Origin: a virus
Taxonomy: Duplodnaviria > Heunggongvirae > Uroviricota > Caudoviricetes
Reading direction: 5' to 3' (one strand)
DNA length: 18,188 nt
IMG/VR virus record: IMGVR_UViG_2671181094_000006
A model generated the notes under the pieces. It was not told where the DNA came from. It saw only the letters and a program-made list of their open reading frames with translations, and made no database searches. Position numbers and translations under genes: made by a program. Position 1 is the first letter of the stretch. Each line of letters opens with the position of its first letter. Shown here in pieces: positions 538 to 18,188 of the stretch.

Positions 538-716
538 AATCTATATATCTCACTGATTTTAATCAGTTAAATTCAATCTCACACTATGCAATTCAGTAAA
601 TATTGATACACCGATTGATATACGGATTATCGCACAGAGCCGAAATCACGCATAAGCATGAGCACATTCCAAAGAGCTGGGGATTATAGCAAGGAAATAT
701 TGTAGGGGTAATGAAT

Positions 717-754: not shown

Positions 755-1294
755 TTAATCCATGAGGCTGTTCAGTGCTTGCTCAACACTTTCATACTTC
801 TGCGTAGTTGGTTTACCTGTTGCGTTTTTAACCATTGAGAACAAAACCACCTCGCCGCTTAGGTCTGAAACACCAGTTGACTCTAAATACGGCAATAATT
901 CTTTCTCATAGAACTCAATTTCTTTTAGTAGCATTTCATCAGGCCTACCAGCCCAAGAATTACGCTCCGGGGACTTTCCACGTTTTATAGAGTAATTAAG
1001 CGAAAATTCTTTATTTTCATATTTGAACTCAACTGCACCATCACAACCAAAGAAGCTTCCTGTGAGTTTTGAGAAATCAATGAGAGTATCAAGGCCGCCG
1101 TTATAAGTGGCTTTCAACTTAGGAGTCTGGCCTGTAATTGTAAATCCTTTAGATTTAAAAAATTCCAAAACATCTTTCTGAATAGCGGTAGCAGCATCAT
1201 TTATTTGTTTATTCAACAACTCGCGCCGAGGAGCGCTGAATTCTTCAATTTTTGCTTTAAGATCTTGTAGTTTCATTTTGTTAGCTAATGACAT
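755..1294 (-). CDS. Hypothetical protein (179 aa), AT-rich orphan at the hpt-proximal island end
   Basis: The ORF in the track is 755-1369. I chose the ATG at 1294 (MSLANKMKLQDLK...) because AAGGA lies 5-6 nt upstream. It is visibly more AT-rich than its neighbours. I recognise no family. Confidence 0.7.
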   Translation of the reverse strand: MSLANKMKLQDLKAKIEEFSAPRRELLNKQINDAATAIQKDVLEFFKSKGFTITGQTPKLKATYNGGLDTLIDFSKLTGSFFGCDGAVEFKYENKEFSLNYSIKRGKSPERNSWAGRPDEMLLKEIEFYEKELLPYLESTGVSDLSGEVVLFSMVKNATGKPTTQKYESVEQALNSLMD

Positions 1295-1547
1295 ATAAAT
1301 TCCTTGTATATCCAGAGTAATAGCTGTGCATAGTCTATGCGATTTCATCCTACTGCTATAAAACATCAAATTCCATAAACATAACCATCAATTAGTTATA
1401 AATGCCTCGATGTTGAATGCGTCCCCCATACTCAACCGGGAATGGGCTGAGCACATTTATCATGACTGTGACCACCAGCCATGACGGCGGATTGTCATGA
1501 ATTACTAATGTATGATAGCACTGTCATACAATAAGGAATCTCCCACT

Positions 1548-1907
1548 ATGAGACTAACCAGCCGCAAAAAGACGATACTCAGCTACTTCGAACCGGATAA
1601 CCGCGACTGGGTGACGGGTGAGATCGGCGCACCTCCCCTTGATGTATCCGGCGTGGCGTACCTGCTGTATGGGACAGGCCTCGAAGACAACCGGCACTGG
1701 CTCGAATCCACCAGACGAACGCTGGAAGCAATGGTGAAAGATGGGTTGCTGGAGAGGTACCGGAGCAGGGAGGCGCGGAGTATCGTTATGGGCGGCGAGA
1801 CGACCGCTACCGTTGTCCGTTACGGCCTGCCGGGTACCGTTTCAGTGGTACGCGATACGGGAGGTGCAGACGGCACGATAGAAGGCGAATATGTGCGGGT
1901 CGTTTAA
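1548..1907 (+). CDS. Winged-helix DNA-binding protein, module A (119 aa); paralog of 5930-6289
   Basis: The ATG at 1548 follows AAGGAA. The layout is H1 KKTILSYF, H2 VSGVAYLL, H3 STRRTLEAMVKDGLLER, wing ATVVRYGLPG. It is roughly 70 percent identical by eye to the 5930-6289 product. Confidence 0.8.
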   Translation: MRLTSRKKTILSYFEPDNRDWVTGEIGAPPLDVSGVAYLLYGTGLEDNRHWLESTRRTLEAMVKDGLLERYRSREARSIVMGGETTATVVRYGLPGTVSVVRDTGGADGTIEGEYVRVV

Positions 1908-2095
1908 CGACGTGGATTATCTGGCCTCTTCCACTGGTAGGCTGGTGCCGTCATCCTCCGGCGGTGCCGTTCTTTAGCAGCGAGCGTTCCCGCAACCCTG
2001 CAACGTAACTCCAGCATATCGGTGGCATTCAGCTCATTCCCCTGCAGGCGGGCCAGCTCTTCAATTACCGCCTCGATTTTCTTCTGTTTTAACAC
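1904..2095 (-). CDS. Small protein (63 aa) with a conserved C-terminal APAYQWK(R/K)P..PRR tail, module A
   Basis: GTG start with AGGAAG 8 nt upstream. The C-terminal 15 residues match the 6945-7130 product. Its stop codon overlaps the stop of the convergent 1548-1907 gene within TTAA (1904-1907). Confidence 0.6.
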   Translation of the reverse strand: MLKQKKIEAVIEELARLQGNELNATDMLELRCRVAGTLAAKERHRRRMTAPAYQWKRPDNPRR

Positions 2096-2201
2096 GCTAT
2101 ATCTTCCTGCTCTATAGGCTCACCGGCTACGCCCTGAGCATCGTTATAAAAAGCCAGCCCCGGAGGGCTGGAATAACAGGAGCCCGCTGGCACACTTTGC
2201 T

Positions 2202-2789
2202 TTAATCGGTATCGTCGGCCAGGGCATACAGCAACGAAGGGATCACTCTCCGCATGGCTGTTTCTTCGGTTTCATCGCTCATGAGAGTCAGGGTGTAATC
2301 CCGGCACTCGTAAATCACATCATATGCAGACAGGCCGAACGCGCCGCCCGCAATGATCTGCCCAATTTCAACATCTGGCGTTTCAACAATCGACAGCCGG
2401 TAGCCGCCGAACGTCACAGGAGGGTTATAAGGCCCTTCGCTTACAAACAGCTCTACGGCCTTTGCAGCAACCTGGGCTCGTTCGTCCGGGTCCACCCCGG
2501 ACACCTTACCGGCACCTGACACCATGATGCGCTTAATCTCCGCAACACTCATTTCCACCAGCGTATACCCCTGCACCTCACCAGCTGGAGCAGGCTTGGT
2601 TTTACCCCTGGCATTCTTCGTACGCGGGTCACTGGCGCTGCGGTATCGTGCCAGATAAGTATCACAGGCCTCCTGGTCAATCTTCCCGTCAACCCGCGCC
2701 GGAAATCCTTCATGACTCTCCCAGTTATACAGTGCCTGCCGGCTCATTCCGGCATGTTTTGCGTACTGGCTGACGCTCATTAGTGACAT
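2202..2789 (-). CDS. Nu1-like (small-terminase-type) HTH protein; candidate packaging-redirection (Rpp-like) or small terminase subunit
   Basis: The ATG at 2789 has AGGAG 7 nt upstream. The N-terminus MSVSQYAKHAGMSRQALYNW...FP resembles the lambda Nu1 N-terminal winged HTH (KKQLADIFGASIRTIQNWQEQGMP). A repeat field lies immediately upstream, as cosB does for Nu1. Confidence 0.7.
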   Translation of the reverse strand: MSLMSVSQYAKHAGMSRQALYNWESHEGFPARVDGKIDQEACDTYLARYRSASDPRTKNARGKTKPAPAGEVQGYTLVEMSVAEIKRIMVSGAGKVSGVDPDERAQVAAKAVELFVSEGPYNPPVTFGGYRLSIVETPDVEIGQIIAGGAFGLSAYDVIYECRDYTLTLMSDETEETAMRRVIPSLLYALADDTD

Positions 2790-2826
2790 AATTTTTCTCC
2801 TGCCTCATTGTCACCGGCTGGCCAGT

Positions 2827-3033
2827 GTGTCAACCCGCCGGCGGGAAACTGTCAATCAAACGTCAAGGGATCAACCGCTTGACACTTTTTTCTGTCAACT
2901 TGACACTTTTCGGGCTGAAAGTGTCAATCAAACTGTCAATCAAAACTTTCACGAATTCCCCTGCATCACGCGCCGCCTCTGGACCTTAACAACCTGACAA
3001 CAAAAAAGTGTCAAGTGTAAAGTGTCAATCAAA
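2827..3033 (-). repeat. Repeat field upstream of the Nu1-like gene; candidate cosB-like binding sites or a promoter cluster
   Basis: Four exact same-orientation copies of TGTCAATCAAA lie at 2850, 2922, 2934 and 3023. Extra TGTCAA copies lie at 2828, 2893 and 3009. Inverted TTGACA copies lie at 2879 and 2900. A TGTCAAcTTGACA palindrome spans 2893-2905. A perfect 12-bp palindrome CCCGCCGGCGGG spans 2834-2845. Confidence 0.55.
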
Positions 3034-3137
3034 TTGAAAACCTGCAGCTACAAAAACACTGCGGCGCGCAATGCCCGTGCCTTACAAAAGTCTCAGGAAG
3101 GACCCATTTTTTCTGAGGGCCATTCCATAGTTATCAC

Positions 3138-3563
3138 TTAATGAACTTCCGGCATCACAGGCCATTCAATATCTGGGGCATCATCAGGGTTAACACGACT
3201 GAGCAGAACGGAGTATTTTTCCCAGTGTTCCAGTCGCGTTTTTTCATCCAAGGTAGCCATTCCGTATTTCACAGCACGCGCTAAAGGGACGATAACGTCC
3301 TCAGCCTTTGTACGTTGCCGCTCTTTTTCAGCCCCAGCCAGCCTGGATAACTGTGCTTTGGTCTGTGGAGGTACATCGACCCACGAGGGCAAGCCATCAG
3401 CCCCTACCCCCCTTTGCTTACCTTCTGGTGGAACCCTGGTGAACTCGTGAAAAACGTTATCACTGACTGCTATAAGGTCCGCTGGTAGAGAATTGTTGTC
3501 CCGATAAGCTGGTAATAATTCATCAGGGTAAAAACACGCCGTTGACGCACTAAAATGATACAT
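3138..3563 (-). CDS. Tail fibre assembly chaperone (Tfa family)
   Basis: The start MYHFSASTACFYP is typical of Tfa proteins. The C-terminus HWEKYSVLLSRVNPDDAPDIEWPVMP matches the conserved Tfa tail (W.KYRVLLNRVD...APDIEWP). The start lies 2 nt after the fibre gene stop. Confidence 0.85.
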   Translation of the reverse strand: MYHFSASTACFYPDELLPAYRDNNSLPADLIAVSDNVFHEFTRVPPEGKQRGVGADGLPSWVDVPPQTKAQLSRLAGAEKERQRTKAEDVIVPLARAVKYGMATLDEKTRLEHWEKYSVLLSRVNPDDAPDIEWPVMPEVH

Positions 3564-3565
3564 GA

Positions 3566-4099
3566 CTATTCCCCTATAGCTAACCATCCAAAATTATCTG
3601 CATTACCCGAACTGCCGCTGATCCAGCCATATGCACGGAAACCGGAATTGGAATCATTGGTTACGGACACGTAACGATTTCCATCTGCGTACTTCGTAGC
3701 AACAATAGCAATAGCCCGCTTAGGAAAAGGTATCGGATACTGAACATTACCTGATGGTGAATTAATAGTGGCAGTTCCCATTTGAACAATAATATTTTTC
3801 TTTTCACCTGATGGTGTTCGGGTAGGAATAATACAGTAACCCTGTGAAGTAAGGGCACCTACGATGGGTTCAGATAGAAGGGCGGTGATCCTCAACTCAT
3901 CAATAACTTCGTTTAACTGACCATCATTTTCAGGCTCAAGCTGGCGGCCAGAACCCTCTACCACGCCCACCATCTCACGCTGCCAGGTATTAAAAATATC
4001 GGCAACAAGAATTGTTGGTGATACCCCATTAGCAACATTACCTTGTGTAAATTCCCCATTACTATCAGCAGTATCAGTGACTGAACTTATCTTACGCAT
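3566..4099 (-). CDS. Short tail fibre / receptor-binding tip protein (177 aa)
   Basis: The N-terminal motif FTQGNVANGVSPTILVADIFNTWQREMVGVVEGSG..L.....QL resembles the conserved tail-fibre motif (T...A.WLN..QEEL.NVI...G). The C-terminal GYCIIP...IIVQMG...VQYPIPFP...FGWLAIGE resembles gp53-like tail-fibre C-terminal domains. A Tfa gene follows directly. Confidence 0.8.
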   Translation of the reverse strand: MRKISSVTDTADSNGEFTQGNVANGVSPTILVADIFNTWQREMVGVVEGSGRQLEPENDGQLNEVIDELRITALLSEPIVGALTSQGYCIIPTRTPSGEKKNIIVQMGTATINSPSGNVQYPIPFPKRAIAIVATKYADGNRYVSVTNDSNSGFRAYGWISGSSGNADNFGWLAIGE

Positions 4100-4127
4100 T
4101 ATGCATATCCTTTAATTGATATCTTCG

Positions 4128-4595
4128 CTATATAGAAAGCGTATCTGCCATACTCACCGGCTCGATATACTTCTCAAGCGCTAACAGAGCGGCGTTAAAA
4201 CCAGCACGATAGCCGTTTGTGTCACCGTTAATCATGCTGTGTTGAAATGCCGCCATGTTCTGGTCTTCGGCATCAAGGAACTCCCAGCCAGGATAAACTT
4301 TCTCCATAGCCCGCCGGGTAAAACGACTGAGCTGGCGAGCGCTGCCTTTTAGTCTGGCAATAGCCTTCTGATGTGGGATCCCTTCCGCGATAAGATGAAA
4401 TGCCTGTATCGGATTTTGTTTTGCCGCTTTGCTCACCGCTATCAGATGCGCATCAGAATGGGGGCATTCAGGGAGTTCCTCTTCTTCAAGCGATTGCTGA
4501 AGCTGGTGCATACGCTGCATACGGCGCCCGGAAAAGCCATATGCATGCGCATCAGGTTGCTGCTTGTTGAGGTGCTGAAAGTTCATAACGCTCAT
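4128..4595 (-). CDS. Hypothetical protein; paralog of the central domain of the 4607-5383 product
   Basis: It shares a ~95-aa domain with the upstream gene: AVS..AK.NP ... F....ME...P.WEF.D.E ... D.NGY.A....AL.AL.K..EP. The start may instead be the ATG at 4586 (MNFQHL), which has better GGAG spacing. Confidence 0.75.
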   Translation of the reverse strand: MSVMNFQHLNKQQPDAHAYGFSGRRMQRMHQLQQSLEEEELPECPHSDAHLIAVSKAAKQNPIQAFHLIAEGIPHQKAIARLKGSARQLSRFTRRAMEKVYPGWEFLDAEDQNMAAFQHSMINGDTNGYRAGFNAALLALEKYIEPVSMADTLSI

Positions 4596-4606
4596 CTCCG
4601 CAGCTC

Positions 4607-5383
4607 TCAGAGAGGAACCTGCGATTTTAGGAGTTCGGCTTCTCGTGCCGGCCCTTCAATCTTGCCATTCACCCGACGGGTATCCCCCGGCAGGCTCACA
4701 CCAGATGCCCGGATACGATCGTTACGGCGTGCAGCAGCCTGCGCGACCTCTTCCCGGTACTCTTCGTCAGCCTTACGGCGAGCATTCACATTCTGAGGTG
4801 ACATAGGGTCATAGTCGTTTTGCATCTTAGATGCCTTGCTGGCTAATGCCTTAATCTCGTCTTCTGTCAGAGGCTCTTCCATCTTCTTCAGCGCCTTCAG
4901 AGCGCTACTCTGGGCAGCAGAGTAACCATTTGCATCACGGTTCTGCGTTGAAAACGTTAGCGCCGAGCGAGCTTTCTCTTCGTCATCCTGAAATTCCCAG
5001 GTCGGGTCATTCTCTTCCATAAACTTTTGGGTAAACACAGAAAGCGCCATCGGCGACGATGCCAGTTGCAGCTTTATTTTCTTCGAAGAAAGTTCCGTTT
5101 CCTTCAGCAAACGAACCGCCAGAACCGGGTTATTTTTTGCCTCCGGGGAAACCGCGACATTGTGGCCGCGACTGTGCTGCTTAGGTCTGGCGATCCGGGC
5201 GTCGTCACTGTCCAGTTTCAGTGGCACATTCCCGTTATCAGACTCGCCTTTCGTTTTGGTTTTGCCTGACAGATGCGAGAAATCAAACATGGATGGGTTT
5301 TCCTCAGATAGTTGGGGCTGTTTTTTCTTATCTTTCGTACCGAACGCTCTTAGCGCCCATGCGGGTAACGTCATTAACGGCAT
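4607..5383 (-). CDS. Hypothetical protein (258 aa), charged and Lys-rich, with a domain paralogous to 4128-4595
   Basis: The ATG at 5383 has GAGGAAA about 7 nt upstream. The alternative ATG at 5290 would remove the overlap with the 66-aa ORF. Confidence 0.75.
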   Translation of the reverse strand: MPLMTLPAWALRAFGTKDKKKQPQLSEENPSMFDFSHLSGKTKTKGESDNGNVPLKLDSDDARIARPKQHSRGHNVAVSPEAKNNPVLAVRLLKETELSSKKIKLQLASSPMALSVFTQKFMEENDPTWEFQDDEEKARSALTFSTQNRDANGYSAAQSSALKALKKMEEPLTEDEIKALASKASKMQNDYDPMSPQNVNARRKADEEYREEVAQAAARRNDRIRASGVSLPGDTRRVNGKIEGPAREAELLKSQVPL

Positions 5384-5528
5384 GGCATGCTTTCCTCTGG
5401 TTGGCGATTATCCGGCGGAGCCACATGAGTTTTTTCTTCTGCTTTCTGAACAGGCGCTCTCTCTTCGCCGCGGCAAACCATTCCGGTAACACCCAGCTTG
5501 TTTTGCTCCTGCACTCCTGGCACGGCAT
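5328..5528 (-). CDS. Small basic protein (66 aa), hypothetical
   Basis: Its ATG overlaps the stop of the upstream RHH-like gene in TAATG (5526-5530), which suggests translational coupling. It is very Arg/Lys-rich. It overlaps the annotated start of the next gene by 56 nt, so one of the two starts is uncertain. Confidence 0.5.
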   Translation of the reverse strand: MPCQECRSKTSWVLPEWFAAAKRERLFRKQKKKLMWLRRIIANQRKACHAVNDVTRMGAKSVRYER

Positions 5529-5704
5529 TACTTTTTATTTGTTTCATGTCTACTAATCCCCTGACGTAAAAGGTGACGCGCCAGCTCCTGAATACTCGGG
5601 GCTGCGCCTACGGTAGAACGTCGGCATTCATCCTCACGGAGGCGCTGTAAACCTTCGAGAATCGGCTGATCAACAAGAATCGGCTTTTTGTTAGTGACTG
5701 CCAT
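5528..5704 (-). CDS. Small ribbon-helix-helix-like protein (58 aa), first gene of the tail-fibre operon; not in the supplied ORF track
   Basis: Hand translation gives MAVTNKKPILVDQPILEGLQRLREDECRRSTVGAAPSIQELARHLLRQGISRHETNKK. A strong SD, AGGAGG, lies 7 nt upstream of the ATG at 5704. The strand-helix-helix pattern is typical of CopG/Arc proteins. Confidence 0.6.
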   Translation of the reverse strand: MAVTNKKPILVDQPILEGLQRLREDECRRSTVGAAPSIQELARHLLRQGISRHETNKK

Positions 5705-5929
5705 TTCCTGACCTCCTGATACTGGTTAAACGTACATACTTCTTCTGTATGGGGTTAACTTATGATCAATAAAATAAATCGTCAAGATAAAATATTTTAA
5801 TTAAAAGGGTTGCGGACTACATGAGGGGGTACTGATTGCGTTACAAAATGGAGGGGAAAGTTAAGTAGCCATTCCTCACCGCTTCTTATTGTATGATAGT
5901 GCTATCCCACAATAAGGAACCTGCCAGCC

Positions 5930-6289
5930 ATGAGAATGACCAGCCGCAAAAAAGAGATACTCAGCTACTTTGAACCGGATAACCGCGATTGGGTAACAGG
6001 TGAGATTGGTGCGCCGCCGTTCGATGTGTCGGGTGTGGCCTACCTGCTTCATGGCATGGGATCATTCGGTAAACGCCACCAGCTCGAATCAACCCGGCGT
6101 ACGCTCGAAAGCATGGTTGCCGGTGGACTGCTTGAGCGAATGACAGTGTATGAATCCCGTCAGGTACGGCGCGGCGGTGAAACCAGCGCAACAGTCGTGC
6201 GCTACGGTTTACCGGGACAGTGTGCCGTTGTGCGAGATAGTGGCGGCGCTGATAACGCAATACCAGGTGAATACATGCGGGTCAGTTAA
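5930..6289 (+). CDS. Winged-helix DNA-binding protein, module B (119 aa); paralog of 1548-1907
   Basis: MRMTSRKKEILSYFEPDNRDWVTGEIGAPPFDVSGVAYLLHG... The ~40-bp leader and operator (TGTATGATAG..CACAATAAGGAA) are conserved with copy A. Confidence 0.8.
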   Translation: MRMTSRKKEILSYFEPDNRDWVTGEIGAPPFDVSGVAYLLHGMGSFGKRHQLESTRRTLESMVAGGLLERMTVYESRQVRRGGETSATVVRYGLPGQCAVVRDSGGADNAIPGEYMRVS

Positions 6290-6824
6290 GAGCCTGCAAT
6301 CTGTCGTTGATGCGGCTCAGGTCGTAAACCCGGCGTTCAATATCCAGCATCAGGAAATTGTGGATCTCGGCCTGCTCAGGATTATCAGACTCTCTGGCCT
6401 GTAATAGCAATTCATTGTATCCATGCAAGCCGCCTGAGTTTTCCGCCGGGGTGGTGCCTTTCCCACGCAGGCAGCTAATGGGCTGATTACTCGTATCGTG
6501 TGTTTGCTTCTCCAGCACAATGACGCAATCCCACCAGTCGCCAAAGTCATACGTGTAAACCAGCTTGTCACCCTCATTCTGGAGCGCTGCCCATAGTGGT
6601 GTGATTGCCGCGTTACCCATGCTTTCACCCTCACCCCATACGCGATACTCGCTACCTAGATCACCTTTACGGCCTTTCTCGAACATATACAGATGTTCGT
6701 CATTCCAGCCAAAAGCCAACTGGATCACCGCGTGAAGTTCACTAAAGGGGATTTGCTCTGGAACCAGCACACGCCGCCATATTGGTGGTTTGCTGTCTCG
6801 GATGGTTATCTTTAGCTGGTACAT
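6282..6824 (-). CDS. Plasmid pRiA4b ORF-3-like (PF07929-type) protein, 180 aa
   Basis: From the ATG at 6824, MYQLKITIRDSKPPIWRRVLVPEQIPFSELHAVIQLAFGWNDEHLYMFE matches the family signature (vyqLkv.L....PpIWRr..Vp....L..LH..Iq.a.GW.d.HL..F). The track ORF starts further upstream, at 6872. The 3' end overlaps the convergent 5930-6289 gene by 8 nt. Confidence 0.8.
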   Translation of the reverse strand: MYQLKITIRDSKPPIWRRVLVPEQIPFSELHAVIQLAFGWNDEHLYMFEKGRKGDLGSEYRVWGEGESMGNAAITPLWAALQNEGDKLVYTYDFGDWWDCVIVLEKQTHDTSNQPISCLRGKGTTPAENSGGLHGYNELLLQARESDNPEQAEIHNFLMLDIERRVYDLSRINDRLQALN

Positions 6825-6944
6825 GCAAATCCTGAATAAATGCGAATCGGAAGGATAACGATACTGACGCACTCACAATTCTGTAAAGGTGAATAAAGGT
6901 AATTTGCTTAATACGCATAAGTTACATGTGGAATAATCCCATAT

Positions 6945-7130
6945 CTACCTGCGCGGCGCTGGCTTCTTCCACTGGTAGGCAGGCGCTCGCATCATCTCCC
7001 CGAACCGTTTACGCCGGACTGTATCAGCTTCAATAATACGTTCCATCTCCCGAACCTCTACCGGGGTAAGCTGGTGGCCTTCATGCTCCATTTTGGCAGC
7101 GGTCAATAAAGCTATTTCGCGTGGTGTCAT
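6945..7130 (-). CDS. Small protein (61 aa) with a conserved C-terminal APAYQWKKPAPRR tail, module B
   Basis: ATG start with AAGGG upstream. The C-terminus is shared with the 1904-2095 product. Confidence 0.65.
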   Translation of the reverse strand: MTPREIALLTAAKMEHEGHQLTPVEVREMERIIEADTVRRKRFGEMMRAPAYQWKKPAPRR

Positions 7131-7337
7131 ACGCCATACCCTTTGGAAGGATGAAACACGCCCGGATTAAATTTTATTTTTCGCGGGTATAAACATTCGA
7201 TGAGGCGGGCAGTGCTTAAGGCTCAGGATTGCAGAGATTTGGCCTCCCCCTCCCGGTGATAGTTTATTGCTTGATGTGGACGGCTTGCTATATTGGCGGA
7301 GAATGCAAATTGTCGCAGAAGTCTATCCCGCTCCCTG

Positions 7338-7363
7338 ACGCCCCGTGCGGGCGTTTTGCTTTT
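7338..7363 (+). terminator. Plus-strand-oriented intrinsic terminator
   Basis: The stem is ACGCCC (7338-7343) / GGGCGT (7349-7354) with a 5-nt loop, followed by TTTTGCTTTT. The U-tract is present only on the plus strand, although the adjacent coding genes are on the minus strand. Confidence 0.45.
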
Positions 7364-7973
7364 ACAAAGTCAGGCCAATGCCTCTGGCTGCTTTCCCCGT
7401 CTTACGCTCAATCACGCCCGTGATTCTATCTACTACCGGACTGAATGCCTGCCAGTAAGCCATCTCCATTGCTGACAACTCTGCCCGCTTCCTGTCAAAC
7501 GTAGCCCAGCGCATCCCCTTTGGTTTTGGGAACATGCGAATATCATTAAACAGGTTATTGGTAAGGTCATTGTTGCCCCATATCGCGCATCGCTGCTGGC
7601 GTATCTTCATTCGCATCCTGTCCAGTCTGTCGGCGCTCTGGCTTTTATAGTGGAGTTTCCAGCATCCCCGGCAGCCAATATCTTTTTTGCCGATATACAG
7701 CTTCGCTACCCGCTTTATGCAGTGGGGACAGACGTACCATTCCCGCACACCATACCCGGCTTGTGTGGTCGTGGTTCTGATTGCCCGTGTAACGCCGTTG
7801 ATTGTCATGGCGTAGCTGTCGGCTTGCCGGAAGGTATAAAACGTTCCGCTTTCGGTCTGGGTATAAAGCTGCGTCCCCGGTTCGGCGTCCGCCAGCCTGC
7901 TACGCATGTGCGCAAGGAATGGCAACCCTATGCGGGGCAGGTCGGTGGTATAGCTGCGTGTTCTGCCTCTCAC
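7362..7973 (-). CDS. Zinc-ribbon protein (203 aa), hypothetical
   Basis: The GTG start at 7973 has AGGAGG 7 nt upstream. The motif is CPHC-X15-CRGC (WYVCPHCIKRVAKLYIGKKDIGCRGCW). Confidence 0.8.
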   Translation of the reverse strand: MRGRTRSYTTDLPRIGLPFLAHMRSRLADAEPGTQLYTQTESGTFYTFRQADSYAMTINGVTRAIRTTTTQAGYGVREWYVCPHCIKRVAKLYIGKKDIGCRGCWKLHYKSQSADRLDRMRMKIRQQRCAIWGNNDLTNNLFNDIRMFPKPKGMRWATFDRKRAELSAMEMAYWQAFSPVVDRITGVIERKTGKAARGIGLTL

Positions 7974-7993
7974 TGGCTGGCCTCCTGTGAATT

Positions 7994-8405
7994 ACTGCGA
8001 ATCAAACTGCGAATGCGCAAAAATGAATACGAAATAATATGCGTATTTTACTGTAAATTGCGCACCAGTTTTGCAATTTCACATCAATAAAGCCAGTAAC
8101 CGCGCGGGTTGAGGATGGTTTGCGCATTGGTATCCGTTTCGTTTTGCGCAGATTTTTTGTGAACTGCGCAAATCGCATTGCCGCCGTTAGAATCCGTCAG
8201 ATGGTACGCACGCTGAATGCGCAGTTTTGCCGCGTACCTGACTGCGTACTGCGAACCAGTGGCGCGAACCAGAATATTATGGACAACCTAAATCACGTTC
8301 TGGCTTCCAGCCCGCGACTGGCGCGGTTCTCTCTTCATATCGGCTTTGAGTCTGTCCAGTACAGTCCAGAATTTACAGCCGTTTTAGTGCGAACATTACT
8401 GCGAA
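7994..8405. repeat. Dense array of TGCG(A/C)A motifs filling the perC-like / zinc-ribbon intergenic region
   Basis: Eleven exact copies start at 7996, 8008, 8014, 8059, 8121, 8145, 8165, 8218, 8250, 8388 and 8400. One-mismatch variants start at 8040, 8205, 8243 and 8263. Six copies extend to ACTGCG.A. Paired units 12 bp apart sit at both ends of the array. GCGAACCAG is repeated at 8251 and 8264. Confidence 0.65.
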
Positions 8406-8707
8406 CAGTCGCCCCCGATGGTGGCCTGTCGTTGCTTCTTGCCGCCATTTAACCGGAAGGCGTTACCGTTCGGTTGCGCTATCCCCATGCGGTGTTGCGT
8501 TTCGGTAACAGCTTTATGCAGATCGCCAAAGTCCTCAACCTTCACGGGCGGGCGCTTCACGTTCTCCAGACACGTTTCACGGCGGCGCTTTATCCATTCC
8601 CGATCATCGTCCTCGGTGCATAACAGCATGACTTCCATCCATCGCGCGGCGGCGCGTCGGTACAGCCCTTTTGCTTCCAGATCCTCGGCTTTACTGTCGT
8701 TTACCAT
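8396..8707 (-). CDS. PerC-family-like transcriptional activator (103 aa)
   Basis: From memory, the N-terminus MVNDSKAEDLEAKGLYRRAAARWMEVM resembles PerC/Pch-family prophage proteins. GAGGGGGA SD. The family call was not verified by search. Confidence 0.65.
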   Translation of the reverse strand: MVNDSKAEDLEAKGLYRRAAARWMEVMLLCTEDDDREWIKRRRETCLENVKRPPVKVEDFGDLHKAVTETQHRMGIAQPNGNAFRLNGGKKQRQATIGGDCSQ

Positions 8708-8718
8708 GTGTATCCCCC

Positions 8719-9180
8719 TCAGAATGGATCTTCATCATCAAACGGCGGGCGCTGGTCAAAATCATCAGGGGTGTTATATAGCTCCCATCCCGGCGCGGAT
8801 TGTGTTGCGTGGCCTCTGCTGGCTCCGCTTGCTTTGACTGATTCGGCCCGCTTCCCGCCAGGGCGTACCGTTCTGGCGCTGATTACACTGTCGGCTACTA
8901 CCTGATAACCTTGCTGTATACCGCCATCCTTGCCCGTCCACTGATTGACCTGCATCGCTCCGGCAACACTGACTAAATCGCCTTTAACGTGTCCTGCCAG
9001 TGCGTCGGCCTGTTTGCCGAATGCCACCACGCCCAGCCAGAAAGTAACCTCTCCGCCCTCTGCTGCATGGCATGGCAGTGCCACCGCTAAACGCCCCATT
9101 GCCATGCTTGTACCGTTTGCTGTGGTGCGGGTCTGCGGGTCTGCGACTAAACGCCCGTAGGCTGATATCTGTGCTGTCAT
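8719..9180 (-). CDS. ssb: Single-stranded DNA-binding protein
   Basis: OB-fold-like N-terminus (GRLVADPQTRTTANGTSMAMGRLAV...). Gly/Pro-rich linker. Acidic C-terminal tip FDDEDPF, comparable to DDDIPF of E. coli SSB. Confidence 0.88.
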   Translation of the reverse strand: MTAQISAYGRLVADPQTRTTANGTSMAMGRLAVALPCHAAEGGEVTFWLGVVAFGKQADALAGHVKGDLVSVAGAMQVNQWTGKDGGIQQGYQVVADSVISARTVRPGGKRAESVKASGASRGHATQSAPGWELYNTPDDFDQRPPFDDEDPF

Positions 9181-9284
9181 TTTGCGAATACCTCGAATTA
9201 TTAGTTTTGCTAATGAAGATTACCCGGCTCCGTCTTATTGTGGGACACCTTCGCCAGATTTTTTTGTATATAAACAAAAAAGTT

Positions 9285-9541
9285 GGTGGTTCAGGTGGTT
9301 CAGTGGTTCAGTACCCCTCTAGGCCGCGCCATCTCTGGGTTTTGCTGAACCACCTTTTAAATTTATCTGGTGGTTCAGTCGCCCTTCTTGGTGGTTCACT
9401 GCCAGCCAGTGAAAATAATCCGTTTCTCTCTGGTGGTTCAAAATACCCGTTTGGTGGTTCAGTGGTGGTTCACTTTCTTACAAAAAAACATTATAAATCA
9501 ATAACAATTACTTACTGAACCACTGAACCACCTGAACCACC
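9285..9541. repeat. Iteron-type replication origin of the island
   Basis: There are twelve copies of (T)GGTGGTTCA. A triple tandem at 9285-9311 and its exact 27-bp reverse complement at 9515-9541 bracket five direct copies (9369, 9390, 9432, 9453, 9464) and one inverted copy (9346). An AT-rich tract spans 9476-9514. The field lies between the primase-helicase and ssb genes. Confidence 0.8.
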
Positions 9542-9567
9542 ACAAAAAACCTCGCACGTGAAAAAGA

Positions 9568-12345
9568 TTATTGCTCTGGCTGGCTTTCCTCCCCATCCGG
9601 CAGGAATTGCAAAACGTAAACGTTAATCTGCCTCCCCTGAATGCGCGGGCTTTTCCTCTGAAATTTTTTTCCGTCTGCCGAAGGGGTAAGCATCCCCGAT
9701 TCTTTCAGGACGCGGGCCACCTGCTGCCTGTTAAACCCCTTAGCAATATCCTTATCGAAAGTGTCGGGGAACGTGTAAAACGTTATCGGTGAATCGTCAT
9801 GATTTCCGCGCTGCCTGTATCCAGCCAGATTATGAATCGGCAGGCTGGCGGGGTCGTAAGGCAGCGGCGCGAATCGACTCAGGCCATAGGCATTTAAAAA
9901 TGCCTCCGCCTGCTCGATGATCTGCTGGTGCTCTTTGTTCCCCGTGCCGAACTCTTTTAGCCATGCGTTATAGGCGTGCTGTATCGCATCCCGGCACGTT
10001 TGAGCATCCCAGCCAGTAACCACGCCACCCATCAGTAAAGCGGCCTCCAGAATGGCAAATCTTGCCCCTACACGGTGAACCTGTTCCCCATAGTCGGCAG
10101 GAATTAGACTGCGCCAGCGGGCCTCACACTCACGAACGGCATCAATCGCCTGTTGCTGGTGGTCTGAAAGCCATCTGATCCACTCCCTCCCGGCAGCGCC
10201 ATGATGGTTCTGGTAAGCGTCTTTCAGCGCGTCGGCGTGGTCTCTCCCTGTCTGGTACTCATGAAAGCGCACCGCCTTACTCAGCGGGATATTCAGCAGT
10301 CGCACCAGTTGCCCCGCTTTTGTCTTGCGTCCTGCGGTGGAGATGAACGTTTCTAAATCCATTTCCCCGGTGCTGATTGCCACGGTGCGCCAGCGTTTCA
10401 GATCCCGGTTGCCTCCTTCCTTTGCTCCCTGCAATTTCCCCACGCCGTTAAACAGGGCATAGGCAGACTGAGCAACGCTTATCGGGTCTGCGCCCTGTCC
10501 GACTTCATCCAGTGGCATCAGCCCGTCATTGTGGGCGGCGGCCTCGTTTATCAGCCCCAGCGCCGTTCCGTACCACGTCAGGCGCAAGGCATCAGGGTTG
10601 CCATAAAGACTGCTCGCCACGTTCTGCGTGGTTGTTTTCCCGGCGCTCGATTGCTCGTAAAAATGAATCCCGAAGCCGTCACGCTCCGCCAGCCCGATTA
10701 ACGGTGCTGCAAGTGCGGCGGCAATGCCTGTCATCATCGCGTAGTTACCGTATGCCAGACGCGCAACACTCTTACGCCAGCTCTCTGAGGTTCCCGCCAC
10801 GGTGTACCCGGCAGCGGCAGAACTGCGGCCACTGAATAAAACGGGTTGTGCAGGTGCGCCGATAATCTCCCCGTCCGGCATGATGTATGCCCCGCACTGC
10901 CAGCCAGTAGCGTGAGCAACACGCCACAATTCACGTGAGCCGCTACGCTGTAACCAGTCAGCCAGAATCGCCCGCAAGCTGCTTTTGGTGGTGACGTTAA
11001 CCCCGCCCGCTTTCAGGGTGCGCCAGCCTTCGCGCTCCCCGATATCAGCCAGGGGGATAGCCGCTGTTGTCGGTATGCCTGCGCCAAAGGCCAGCCAGCG
11101 TAATATCAGATACTGATCCTTGTCGTCCCGCCCGGTGCCGATAACGTCCATCGGTGAGGCCAGCCAGCTTTCATTGTTGATAATCTCGCCGCTTTCCTTG
11201 TCCACTTTAGGCGTGATCCAGTAAACGCCATCTTTGCGGCTCTCAATGCGGGGTTTTAGCGGGTCTTTCTCTGGCTGGTCAGTTTTACCGCCCTCAATGG
11301 CCTGTAGTTGTGGTTTCACGCATTCCCCCTGCGGCTGGTACATCGAATCATTAAACGCAGCCGTAGCGACTTCCAGCCCGTGTTGCTGGTGGTAGTCGTT
11401 CCAGTCAGCTTTGCTGTCAGTCGGTGGCAGCGATACCCAGCCAGCCACGGATAAAGCCGCTTTCTCTGCGGCCTCCTTCCCGATGTTGGTGGCTCCGGTT
11501 TCGGAGGCTGCTGTAGGGTGGTCGTTATCTGCGGCGATAATAATTTGCGACTGCGGGTGTTTCCGGCGCATTACTCCGGCAACGTGGATCAGGTTCCCGG
11601 CGTCAATTGCCGCCACTGTGAGCGCGTCAGGCCGCATCTGGTGAACGGACAGGGCGGTAGCCAGCCCCTCGGCAATCACGACGCTTTGAGGCCGTTCCAG
11701 CGCGTTTACGGCGTAATATGCCCCGCGCTTTGCCGATCCCTTAATGAGTCGCTTTTCTCCCTGCGGGGTGATGGTCTGCGCGGCTGTGACTGCGCCGGAT
11801 TCATCCACCAGCTCCAGCAATAACGAACCATCGGGCATAAGCGGGTATTTAAACCCGGTCAGCCCTTTTGATTGCAGGTACTCAGATTCTCCCTGTATGG
11901 ATCTCAGGCGCATTCCGGTATACAGACGGGCAAACGTAGCCCTTCGCTGATCTGCGTCCTCTGCTGCCTGTTTCTGGCGCTCCTGCTCACGCTGCTGGCG
12001 GTCTGCGGCTAACTGCCTCTGTCTCTGGCTGGCAGCGTCTGGTGCTGATTCTGCGGCCCGGTAATCAATACCCAGCACATCAGCGGCAAGCTGTGCCGCC
12101 TCCGTGGTGTCGCAGTTGTTCACCTTCTTAATCAGGTCTAAGCCATCGCCCGCGCCGCACTGGTTGCAGATAAAGCTGCCGCGCCCGTTGTCGTCGAATC
12201 TGAAACGGTCTTTCCCACCACATGCAGGGCAGGGGGCATGGCGGCGCGATGAATCAGGAACGTCGATAGACAATCCGGCCAGCACATAAGGCCATCGCCC
12301 TGCTGCGGCGCTGGTCACTTCGCGGATAAGGTCGATATTACGCAT
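9568..12345 (-). CDS. Primase-helicase replication protein (zinc-binding domain + Toprim + P-loop NTPase), P4-alpha / PICI Pri-Rep type
   Basis: 925 aa. Zinc motif CPACGGKDRFRF...CNQCG. Toprim residues VVIAEGLATALSV and IIIAADNDH. Walker A SSAGKTT and Walker B LMPLDEV. GGGAGGT SD. Confidence 0.95.
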   Translation of the reverse strand: MRNIDLIREVTSAAAGRWPYVLAGLSIDVPDSSRRHAPCPACGGKDRFRFDDNGRGSFICNQCGAGDGLDLIKKVNNCDTTEAAQLAADVLGIDYRAAESAPDAASQRQRQLAADRQQREQERQKQAAEDADQRRATFARLYTGMRLRSIQGESEYLQSKGLTGFKYPLMPDGSLLLELVDESGAVTAAQTITPQGEKRLIKGSAKRGAYYAVNALERPQSVVIAEGLATALSVHQMRPDALTVAAIDAGNLIHVAGVMRRKHPQSQIIIAADNDHPTAASETGATNIGKEAAEKAALSVAGWVSLPPTDSKADWNDYHQQHGLEVATAAFNDSMYQPQGECVKPQLQAIEGGKTDQPEKDPLKPRIESRKDGVYWITPKVDKESGEIINNESWLASPMDVIGTGRDDKDQYLILRWLAFGAGIPTTAAIPLADIGEREGWRTLKAGGVNVTTKSSLRAILADWLQRSGSRELWRVAHATGWQCGAYIMPDGEIIGAPAQPVLFSGRSSAAAGYTVAGTSESWRKSVARLAYGNYAMMTGIAAALAAPLIGLAERDGFGIHFYEQSSAGKTTTQNVASSLYGNPDALRLTWYGTALGLINEAAAHNDGLMPLDEVGQGADPISVAQSAYALFNGVGKLQGAKEGGNRDLKRWRTVAISTGEMDLETFISTAGRKTKAGQLVRLLNIPLSKAVRFHEYQTGRDHADALKDAYQNHHGAAGREWIRWLSDHQQQAIDAVRECEARWRSLIPADYGEQVHRVGARFAILEAALLMGGVVTGWDAQTCRDAIQHAYNAWLKEFGTGNKEHQQIIEQAEAFLNAYGLSRFAPLPYDPASLPIHNLAGYRQRGNHDDSPITFYTFPDTFDKDIAKGFNRQQVARVLKESGMLTPSADGKKFQRKSPRIQGRQINVYVLQFLPDGEESQPEQ

Positions 12346-12359
12346 TCGTGTTACCTCCC

Positions 12360-12986
12360 TCAGTGCGCCGCTGGCATTTCAGGCAAGCCGTTTTCATTCA
12401 GATCGGCAATGAATCCATCGTGTAGCTCTGCCAGCGTTTCACGCCCGAACGGGGTCAATTCCCCGCGCTCCGTGTCGATCATGGCCTGATAAAAAACAAT
12501 GGCGTTCGCTGTTCCCTGCTCAATGCCGTAGCGCTCAATCATTGCGCCCTCCATGTTGTTAGCCATCGCCAGACGTTCCGCGAACGGGTAAACCACAATC
12601 CCCGCCGTGCCATTTGAATAAAACGTCACCAGCGACGATTTGCCGTCATCCTCCGTGATGGTGGTTGTGCCGTTTTCGCGCTTCATCTCAGAAATGAACG
12701 TCGCAGCAATCAGCCAGCGCCACATAGTGACGTTATGCTGCGCGGTAAAGTCGAACCAGCCACGCGCCCCGCCATCAGCAACGGCAAAATGTATGGCGTA
12801 TCCGATATCTGGCTTGTCGTCGTACTCTCCGGCGTCAAGGCCGTTCACGGCGCTCTCGTAGCTGATAAGAGCAACCAGCTCAAATCCCCCGGCATCATTG
12901 CGGGTCATGATATTGACGCCGTGCGGTGTGGCTTCGGCGCGTAATACGTCGTCATTTCCCGGTGTGAATTTCTCTACGTTGCTCAT
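12360..12986 (-). CDS. Hypothetical protein (208 aa) immediately upstream of the primase-helicase
   Basis: Its ATG overlaps the previous stop (ATGA). It sits 14 nt before the primase gene. I recognise no family. Confidence 0.8.
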   Translation of the reverse strand: MSNVEKFTPGNDDVLRAEATPHGVNIMTRNDAGGFELVALISYESAVNGLDAGEYDDKPDIGYAIHFAVADGGARGWFDFTAQHNVTMWRWLIAATFISEMKRENGTTTITEDDGKSSLVTFYSNGTAGIVVYPFAERLAMANNMEGAMIERYGIEQGTANAIVFYQAMIDTERGELTPFGRETLAELHDGFIADLNENGLPEMPAAH

Positions 12987-13195
12987 GCTTTGCCGTCCAG
13001 ACTCAAATCCATATCAACTAACTCGCCTTCTACTGAATCCATCAGCTCGGGGATACCATCCAGAAGGGTAATGACTGCGCCAATAAGATGATCCGTGCCG
13101 CTATCTTTTTTAATCGGTGCTTCAAGCCAAAGAGAAAGAACTTGCTGCGCTTGCTTGATACGGCAGGCTGAATCAATCAGGGATAACTTGCTCAT
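12983..13195 (-). CDS. Small hypothetical protein (70 aa)
   Basis: ATGA start/stop overlaps at both ends. It is preceded by the conserved junction GGAGGGCAGCGCATGA. Confidence 0.65.
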   Translation of the reverse strand: MSKLSLIDSACRIKQAQQVLSLWLEAPIKKDSGTDHLIGAVITLLDGIPELMDSVEGELVDMDLSLDGKA

Positions 13196-16869: not shown

Positions 16870-16961
16870 ATCGTCACCCTCAACGCCCCTAAATAACTTG
16901 CGGGCCAGGCGGGTAGGGTTTCCCGCTTTTCGGTTGGCCGACCTAGACCCGCAATATCAGT

Positions 16962-18188
16962 TTAATCTCTATTCGCTACAGGTAACAGAACCACATTTTT
17001 ATGATTACCCGCAAGAAGTTCTAAACGTTCATGCCATTTGTTCAGCGCATCCAGCTTCTCCGGCAAGTACAGGCTACGGTTATATATAGCCATGACGCCC
17101 GGTAGAGCATGACCCAGCAGCAACTCTACAATATGCGGTGCTATGCCCATATTGTTTAACCCCGTGGAGAACGTGCGCCGCAGATCGTGAAGTGTCCACG
17201 GCTCGTTATGATGGAAATCTTTAAAAAGCCGTCGCCCTTTCAAAGATACAGCTTGCCGGGTGCGCTCTTCTCCCAGCAGCAGGCCTGTTTTACCCGTCTC
17301 GCGTTTTAACTCTTCCAGCCACGGGCGTATAGCTTCAGGGATTGATCTCACGATTTTCTCGCGGGTTTTGCTGTGCTCTTTCGGGACTGTCCAAATCCAC
17401 GAGGTAAAATCCCACTCCGACCATCGAGAGAGGCGAACTTCCATCGTTCGAGCGCCAAACAGCACCAGCATTTTGAGAAGACGTGAATAATACGGCTGCT
17501 GATCATCGCTGTCTGTGCAGCGCCATACATCGGCCAGCTCGCTATCTGACAATACGCGGTCACGTTGACCGGATGGCTGGCCTACATCCTGAATGGTGAG
17601 AAAGGCTAGAGCATCACTGGCGGCATAGCGGCGAACCTTGCAGAAGCGTAACGCCTGTTTAGAAATCTGGAACATGCGGCCGGCGGTCATGGGTTTGGTC
17701 AGATTTATTTCATCAAAACAGGCCACCCAATGACGGGTTTCACATCTGGTGAGGGGATAACGACCAAGGCGCGGGTAAATATGCTTGCGTAGCTGTGCCC
17801 TTACCAGCTCCTCATCGCTGCGCTTTCTCCTGGCGTAGTTCACCAGCCAGTATTCGAGAGCATCCTGTACTGTCACAGGTTTAAGCGTTTCTTCGGTGCT
17901 CAGTTCAAGCTCTGTTTTTGGATCAAGACCACCAGCCAGCCACTGGCGACACTTTTCCCGCTTTTCTCTCGCCGCTTTTAGCGACAAATCCGGGTAACGG
18001 CCAAGCGTTAAACGTTCGAGTTTGCTACCCCTTCCGCCCAATCGGTAAGCGAACACCCAGCTAACGTTACCTTGCTTCGAAACCTTAATGCTCAGTCCTT
18101 CACCATCGGCAATCATGATCGGTGCTTCACGCTCAGAACCCTGCAGCGCTTTTAGCTTTTTGTCGCTCAGTTTGTTTGTACCAGCCAT
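16962..18188 (-). CDS. P4-type tyrosine integrase (full length; the start codon is the last three bases of the window)
   Basis: N-terminal arm-type domain (LSDKKLKAL...GEGLSIKVSKQGNVSWVFAYRLGG...LGRYPDLSLKAAREK). Catalytic residues ARTMEVRLSRW, HDLRRT, LLGH, and Y in AIYNRS. Confidence 0.95.
   Translation of the reverse strand: MAGTNKLSDKKLKALQGSEREAPIMIADGEGLSIKVSKQGNVSWVFAYRLGGRGSKLERLTLGRYPDLSLKAAREKREKCRQWLAGGLDPKTELELSTEETLKPVTVQDALEYWLVNYARRKRSDEELVRAQLRKHIYPRLGRYPLTRCETRHWVACFDEINLTKPMTAGRMFQISKQALRFCKVRRYAASDALAFLTIQDVGQPSGQRDRVLSDSELADVWRCTDSDDQQPYYSRLLKMLVLFGARTMEVRLSRWSEWDFTSWIWTVPKEHSKTREKIVRSIPEAIRPWLEELKRETGKTGLLLGEERTRQAVSLKGRRLFKDFHHNEPWTLHDLRRTFSTGLNNMGIAPHIVELLLGHALPGVMAIYNRSLYLPEKLDALNKWHERLELLAGNHKNVVLLPVANRD

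Follow-up and report, generated by a model that had tools for sequence, protein, structure and literature searches.

A probable two-slot accessory-gene hotspot between a predicted winged-helix gene and a small basic-tailed gene in an enterobacterial phage satellite

The virus record IMGVR_UViG_2671181094_000006 of the IMG/VR database comprises 18,188 nucleotides (nt), which were analysed as a whole (hereafter the window; all positions count along its one given strand). The window is a phage satellite of the phage-inducible chromosomal island (PICI) type, lying beside hpt: integrase, AlpA and primase/replication genes stand in the conserved order, there are attachment (att) repeats, and capsid and lysis genes are absent, the exception to this gene complement being two tail-fibre genes at 3138-4099, one a fragment and the other an assembly gene. 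The minus strand carries almost the whole gene set of the island; chief among the exceptions are two related plus-strand genes, wA (1548..1907) and wB (5930..6289), each encoding a protein of 119 amino acids (aa) and each converging on a small minus-strand gene, sA (1904..2095, 63 aa) and sB (6945..7130, 61 aa), respectively. We refer to wA/sA as module A, which is empty between its two genes, and to wB/sB as module B, which holds a further gene.

An initial annotation of this DNA had judged the wA and wB proteins about 70% identical by eye; alignment gives 74% identity over 118 aa (E = 3e-63), and all the coordinates it listed are confirmed. The two proteins fall into distinct clades, here called A and B, of a narrow family with 95 representatives at E <= 1e-3 among 1.84 billion proteins. 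No Pfam, NCBIfam or PDB sequence match was obtained, a sub-threshold match of a distant relative to PF25212 being the only hint of a curated family, and one relative carries a fused T5orf172/MUG113 domain. AlphaFold2, run on the more diverse of two alignments, gives a model with a predicted local distance difference test score (pLDDT) of 77.9 and the topology H-H-b-H-H-hairpin (a first run, on a shallow alignment, scored 57.6 and was unused). This is a helix-turn-helix followed by a beta-hairpin wing, hence the protein is a predicted winged helix-turn-helix (wHTH), and a Foldseek search of the PDB yielded only weak matches (E of 5e-3 or worse). It differs from the regulators with the MarR, ArsR or Fur DNA-binding-domain fold in lacking Pfam or NCBIfam sequence membership and in the narrowness of its family. 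The ratio of nonsynonymous to synonymous substitution rates (dN/dS) is 0.13, including at empty sites, which indicates purifying selection. As for its location, in most cases the wHTH gene closes the island on the side away from the integrase, as wA does here, and faces inwards: among the loci of the survey described below (labelled L), it lies 220 nt from hpt in L003, chromosomal genes follow directly beyond it in L005, L012, L016 and L018, and in many IMG/VR contigs it stands at the contig end.

The small proteins are 35% identical over 46 aa and do share the C-terminal M.APAYQWK.P..PRR read at the outset, their basic tails being ...RMTAPAYQWKRPDNPRR in sA and ...MMRAPAYQWKKPAPRR in sB. The sA protein matches phrog_7271 at 7e-25, and such small open reading frames are annotated in RefSeq. 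A coding signal, whose absence would have told against them, is present: dN/dS is about 0.27 for the whole gene and 0.19 within the tail motif, whose residues are retained despite synonymous substitutions (TAC/TAT, CAG/CAA, four Pro codons, CGN/AGR). Since the residues persist through such changes, the tail is a peptide feature and not a DNA site, and the latter candidate was rejected. In relatives the small gene is the last of the late/packaging unit. TerL is its immediate upstream neighbour in L003, in "Escherichia phage vB_KppS-Ant", a packaged capsid-forming PICI of 16.5 kilobases (kb), and in numerous contigs of that kind; elsewhere the neighbour is p203, p195 or a protein of roughly 200 aa that may resemble the lambda tail-assembly protein gpI. 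In the window, sA is the last gene of the p58-to-p195 arm. Judging by this position, the small gene would be expressed with the late operon.

At module A the two genes meet stop-to-stop, as had been described, their stop codons overlapping by 4 nt within TTAA (1904-1907), and this overlap is kept in all eight of the empty clade-A sites. At module B the junction is occupied by a minus-strand gene of 543 nt (6282..6824) that matches the MM3350/pRiA4b ORF-3 family along its full length (PF07929, E = 1.6e-42; PDB 2I1S, deposited as 'hypothetical protein', at 6e-22) and has no PADLOC match; we call it pRiA4_ORF3, or pRiA4. It is followed by a 120-nt spacer (6825..6944, minus strand) with a promoter-like TTTACA-18-TATCGT (6887 to 6858), a predicted element that agrees with the consensus at 9 of 12 positions. 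The spacer is conserved with the cargo at all sites with a 655-nt gap. The content and sizes given in the initial annotation thus stand, but the placement exactly between the two genes does not, as the end of the cargo gene overlaps that of wB by 8 nt. Among 5426 complete E. coli genomes, 347 (about 6%) contain module B in this filled form. In the literature we found no established function for the pRiA4_ORF3 family, which papers name only in annotation lists.

Both wHTH genes are preceded by a conserved leader. In each of the 23 loci compared, which range from Escherichia to Serratia, Pantoea and Erwinia, the stretch of about 45 nt ahead of the wHTH ATG is conserved, with the consensus TTATTGTATGATAG-NN-CTATC(CC/AT)ACAATAAGGAA..CCATG, and the sequences further upstream are unrelated. 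The wA leader (1505..1547, plus strand) holds an imperfect palindrome, TGTATGAtagcactgTCATACA (1509-1530), with a -10-like TATGAT, followed by the Shine-Dalgarno sequence AAGGAA; the wB leader (5886..5929, plus strand) holds the palindrome TTATTGTATGATAGtgCTATCCCACAATAA (5890-5911), likewise followed by a Shine-Dalgarno sequence. The two inverted repeats had been noticed before, and they prove real and unique to these leaders: the pattern of 16 specified bases, at up to 3 mismatches, occurs in the window only there (4 strand-hits against 0.09 expected), with no further wHTH operator copies in the window. Across viral contigs 22 stretches match the leader pattern, all of them at wHTH leaders except two identical phage matches. 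The accompanying claim of overlapping promoter-like hexamers holds for the -10-like TATGAT in the left arm but not for a -35 element, none being present beyond chance in 19 distinct upstream sequences; a consensus promoter scan also returned nothing at the wHTH leaders. If TATGAT is a -10 element, the left arm of the palindrome would be untranscribed. An RNA hairpin is not favoured, as the leaders do not fold clearly better than shuffled sequences (z of -1.3 and -2.1). Judged from sequence, the wHTH protein most likely binds the palindrome of its own leader as a dimer and controls its own expression. Two of the matching leaders in viral contigs precede disrupted wHTH genes. In L088 (3931-4000) and L078, both from IMG/VR, the intact leader and the first four wHTH codons (MRMT) run into unrelated sequence, the gene having apparently been disrupted by insertion or rearrangement.

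To characterize what lies between the two genes elsewhere, some 125 related loci were surveyed: 23 were found through the wHTH protein in species-representative genomes, 42 through it in IMG/VR and 63 through the small protein, and annotated E. coli examples were added. The survey covers 65 wHTH sites, around which the small gene was sought within 3.5 kb or to the locus end. Both genes are present at 48 of them, separated by a gap of -4 to 3826 nt. The gap is -4 nt and empty at 8 sites, all of clade A, and 16-111 nt and again empty at 5; it measures 652-655 nt and holds pRiA4 at about 20 sites, and the remaining sites have other content in gaps of 575-3826 nt. A gene resembling those of ribbon-helix-helix (RHH) proteins, of 141-184 aa and on the wHTH strand, is the slot content in about 15 loci. 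Defence-type content includes AbiD (2e-55 in PADLOC) and ShosT/ShosA (4e-49 and 2e-100); further content comprises a SocA-Panacea antitoxin (6e-18) with its partner, PemK/MazF, Fic, an M78 peptidase with a membrane protein, and CHAD, as well as mobile elements, namely the insertion sequences IS256 and IS3 and an integrase. The idea that the convergent 3'-3' junction carries variable genes is therefore borne out: the same two families flank varied or empty content in other genomes, and the surveyed pairs are far from never holding variable genes.

The content also turns over among close relatives, since it differs within one wHTH clade at 84-92% identity. Clade B, with wHTH identities in this range, has slots that are empty or hold pRiA4, pRiA4 with Panacea toxin-antitoxin genes, or MazF; in group 13 the slot is empty or carries the RHH-like gene, alone, with IS3 or with a three-gene set; in clade A it is empty or carries pRiA4. 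Both states exist for both alleles, as an A-type site is filled with pRiA4 in E. coli VG1046-3E9 and a B-type site is empty in Shimwellia (L006). The three-gene set of L063 (659-2935, minus strand; 278, 213 and 264 aa), of which only the middle gene found a match, a weak helix-turn-helix (HTH), is a candidate new defence system.

The two flanking genes can occur separately and so do not form an obligate pair. A wHTH gene is missing from 20 of the 44 small-gene loci that could be assessed, and in capsid-forming PICIs the small gene is itself terminal; in turn, 17 of the 65 wHTH sites have no detected small gene, several of these loci being truncated or decayed. Reading the pair as one functional unit thus finds no support here.

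Several individual loci deserve mention. In the O157 island at the dinD site of E. coli O157:H7 F6667 (L070, 8487-10166) a 128-aa wHTH homologue lies between PerC genes; its DNA identity is about 70% over the 5' part, and no small gene or cargo is annotated there. Cedecea davisae (L020, 5001-6906) has a decayed module, with the wHTH cut off after residue 61, an in-frame stop in the small gene and a Fic gene between them. One clade has three copies of a TATGCGT(T/G)-type motif within 50 nt after the wHTH stop (L049, L050, L062 and L063; on the small-gene side in L054); this clade usually carries the RHH-like gene, and the copies may form a binding array.

Concerning the presence of two modules in one island, a duplicated module had been proposed, and this does not hold. 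The clades of wA and wB each normally occur singly, with module A only in L001 and module B only in L004-L011. The segment 5886-12998, from wB to beyond the primase, matches dinD-site PICIs of many E. coli genomes at 90.6%, and its flanks match hpt-site islands; the left breakpoint, 5886, falls exactly on the left boundary of the wHTH leader. As the two modules belong to distinct clades and one lies in a segment that matches PICIs at another chromosomal site, the sequence comparison indicates a mosaic in place of a local duplication, the two copies being lineage alleles joined by recombination. A retained tandem of two satellites was also considered and rejected, as no att core lies between wB and p58.

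Taken together, we consider that the region is probably the distal accessory-gene hotspot of an enterobacterial PICI-type satellite, here with two slots, whose cassettes are swapped by recombination in the flanks. One anchor would be the 61-63-aa basic-tailed gene, closing a helper-induced late/packaging transcription unit, and the other the inward-facing winged-helix gene with its own conserved leader and palindrome. Between them would lie self-contained cassettes (pRiA4_ORF3, RHH-like, abortive-infection, toxin-antitoxin and other defence genes) that are gained, lost and swapped as related satellites recombine through the conserved flanks. The two slots of the window would stem from a clade-B central block (5886-12998), with its own terminal module, inside a clade-A island in which the wA/sA slot is empty.

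Some observations weigh against this hotspot interpretation. In the majority of slots the sole content is pRiA4 or the RHH-like gene, both without a PADLOC match and neither a known defence gene, and the cargo type largely follows the wHTH clade; from this bias in content and its tracking of clades, the pattern would in part reflect vertical inheritance and not rapid exchange. For the wHTH gene no canonical promoter was found, which leaves the autoregulation model without a defined one. The two-module layout recurs at the dinD site in E. coli 2022CK-00450 (L094), so that the double layout may be a propagating architecture, a stable design and not a chance mosaic. Finally, pRiA4 and the wHTH gene have diverged in parallel (about 74% identity each) with the same 8-nt tail overlap, to which a two-gene partnership fits equally well.

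This last point leads to the alternative that survives best, even if we hold it to be unlikely: the real unit would be the wHTH gene and pRiA4_ORF3, a tail-to-tail regulator or partner with its effector, beside which the small gene is a mere neighbour and the empty sites are deletion derivatives with an orphan regulator. The pRiA4 of the window is 74% identical to the copy at the A-type sites of L001 and L003, matching the 72-74% between wHTH clades; as the difference of about 26% between the copies at A and B sites parallels that of the wHTH clades, the two genes have been long linked. The 8-nt overlap of their ends is kept in both clades, and pRiA4, present at about 20 of 25 clade-B sites, is found only beside a clade A or B wHTH. 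However, at least 35 wHTH loci without pRiA4 keep the same leader, the wHTH gene is under equal purifying selection at empty sites, 8 of 10 clade-A loci show the conserved 4-nt overlap of the wHTH and small genes, and some clade-B slots have MazF (L046) or Panacea toxin-antitoxin genes (L048) in place of pRiA4. A further proposal, tentative and in our estimate improbable, is that pRiA4_ORF3 is a satellite-borne effector against phages or interfering with the helper, and that the wHTH anchor serves as a gatekeeper dedicated to this gene and to the slot and would, through autoregulated, convergent transcription, check cargo expression until phage infection.

Less probable still, and in our judgement quite doubtful, is that the wHTH and small proteins form a two-gene switch or addiction module acting through convergent overlapping transcription (antisense interference), the cargo merely spacing them. 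The genes are convergent, their stops overlap with no terminator between them in clade A, they occur together at 48 of the 65 wHTH sites and both are under purifying selection. Against this stand the separate occurrence of the two genes described above, with the small gene terminal in capsid-forming PICIs, and a cargo of up to 3.8 kb with its own promoters, which would abolish antisense coupling. Neither protein has a toxin-like domain, and the genes, being convergent and separable, differ from a type II toxin-antitoxin system with its obligate co-occurrence, co-directional operon and recognisable toxin. Moreover, in L094 (2486-3675), with its two-arm layout, a KilA-N domain gene stands in place of wA beside sA.

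It is very unlikely that the 3'-3' junction is a site-specific, integron-like docking site where a recombinase inserts cassettes, as the initial annotation had suggested in part, for although the homology of empty and filled alleles breaks off at the wHTH stop on one side and a few codons short of the small-gene stop on the other (no more than about 20 nt from the stops) and the cassettes have their own promoter-like sequences, no direct or inverted repeats bound the cargo, the 50 nt past either stop share no motif across cargo types, the survey shows no recombinase tied to the slot beyond sporadic insertion sequences and one integrase, and the final codons of the small gene are not the same in empty and filled alleles, a difference that recombination inside the flanks would be expected to produce. 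An exchange of cassettes through recombination in the conserved flanks, the process invoked in the hotspot interpretation and already proposed for the hotspots of P2/P4 elements (PMC9122126), would explain the data equally well.

The remaining features of the window concern the surroundings of the two modules. Upstream of sA lies p195 (2202..2789, minus strand), whose N-terminus resembles a small-terminase HTH (phrog_57, terminase small subunit, at 8e-8 over residues 1-65 in PHROGs) and which has no PDB sequence match. The four-cysteine protein p203 (7362..7973, minus strand), without a Pfam or PDB match, is the usual upstream neighbour of B-type small genes and co-occurs with sB in L004-L007, L011 and others. 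Terminator-like hairpins are found between p195 and sA (2154..2171, minus strand; CCAGCCCTCCGGGGCTGG then CTTTTTAT, a consensus match only) and between p203 and sB (7337-7355, plus strand), so the small genes may have their own transcription starts and not depend on plain read-through. A second variable zone lies on the 5' side of the wHTH gene, where p179 (755..1294, minus strand; no Pfam or PADLOC match) stands between the att core and the wA leader; the equivalent position holds nothing in L003, Fic in L007, a GmrSD-like gene in L017, PD-T7-4 in L009 and a type II restriction endonuclease in L006. At curated thresholds p195, p203, p179, the wHTH and the small protein have no Pfam, NCBIfam, PADLOC or PDB matches, and databases name all of them "hypothetical protein".

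As for the island as a whole, Pfam matches in the window comprise Phage_integrase, Phage_AlpA, a Bro-N antirepressor and a Zn_Ribbon_Prim/Toprim_3/DUF927 primase, together with SSB and PerC. The integrase gene occupies 16962-18188, and an int-alpA RNA (Rfam RF02996; 62.6 bits against a gathering score of 35.8) lies at 16886-16953 on the minus strand, between it and a 279-aa gene. The att core ATTGATACACCGATTGATA (602..620, plus strand) delimits the island on its left, adjoining hpt, with one exact match in the window; in E. coli EC09 the same 19-mer bounds the island on either side (L002, positions 2102 and 18144), and related islands in E. coli are located between hpt and gcd. EcCICFT073 has two cos sites, and on that model a lambda-type cos near the modules was considered and rejected: no lambda-type cosN was found in the window, the sole near-match lying inside the primase gene at chance level.

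The tail-fibre genes at 3138-4099 (minus strand), one encoding a C-terminal fragment of the fibre (PF21882 Gp53-like_C, 177 aa) and the other a protein of fibre assembly (Caudo_TAP, 1.3e-30), stand in a satellite otherwise without capsid or other tail genes. They are absent from EC09, and VG1046-3E9 has a different, partly decayed set; they may be host-range cargo. The genes p155 and p258 (4128-4595 and 4607-5383, both minus strand) share a domain of about 104 aa at 42% identity, with no family match except a sub-threshold one to ART-PolyVal, and together with a 58-aa gene at 5528-5704 they form the head of a second late-type arm.

Satellite cargo slots that swap anti-phage and toxin-antitoxin genes are already known, and the region is a well-documented new example and not a new kind of system. 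By a published definition, a hotspot is small (about 1-5 kb), is flanked by two conserved genes and shows high turnover (PMC9122126). The P2/P4 hotspots of that work and the region share a high-turnover locus (0-3.8 kb here) between two conserved genes of a phage-related element, abortive-infection and toxin-antitoxin-type content, DprA-type ShosTA relatives and cassettes with their own expression signals. They differ in that the element is here PICI-type and not P4, the anchors are a winged-helix gene and a small basic-tailed gene, pRiA4_ORF3 and the RHH-like gene, which are the most frequent occupants, are not known as defence genes, and one island has two slots; also, the P2/P4 hotspots adjoin cos, whereas here there is no lambda-type cosN. 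We file the region with the known hotspots because its structure agrees with theirs, its defence content agreeing only partly, as the commonest residents are without known function. Variable regions before and after the PICI packaging module have likewise been described (bioRxiv 10.1101/2025.02.11.637232; PMC10085698), including accessory genes "after the terS homolog" (PMC10085698). The present slot, directly after the last late gene, agrees with the variable regions of PICIs and capsid-forming PICIs (de Sousa et al. 2023, PMC10085698; bioRxiv 10.1101/2025.02.11.637232), which in the parts of these reports covered here are given without named flanking genes, whereas here the slot is delimited gene by gene and its content listed for about 65 sites.

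Two short recognisable anchors, the 119-aa wHTH gene with its 30-nt palindromic leader and the 61-63-aa gene ending YQWKKP.PRR, thus mark the cargo slot of widespread enterobacterial satellites. Like the P2/P4 hotspots, they can serve for collecting possible defence genes, from short contigs as well, and the candidates nominated by the present analysis are pRiA4_ORF3, the 141-184-aa RHH-like gene, the L063 three-gene set and p179. A single island can hold two such slots, and with them two cargo loads.

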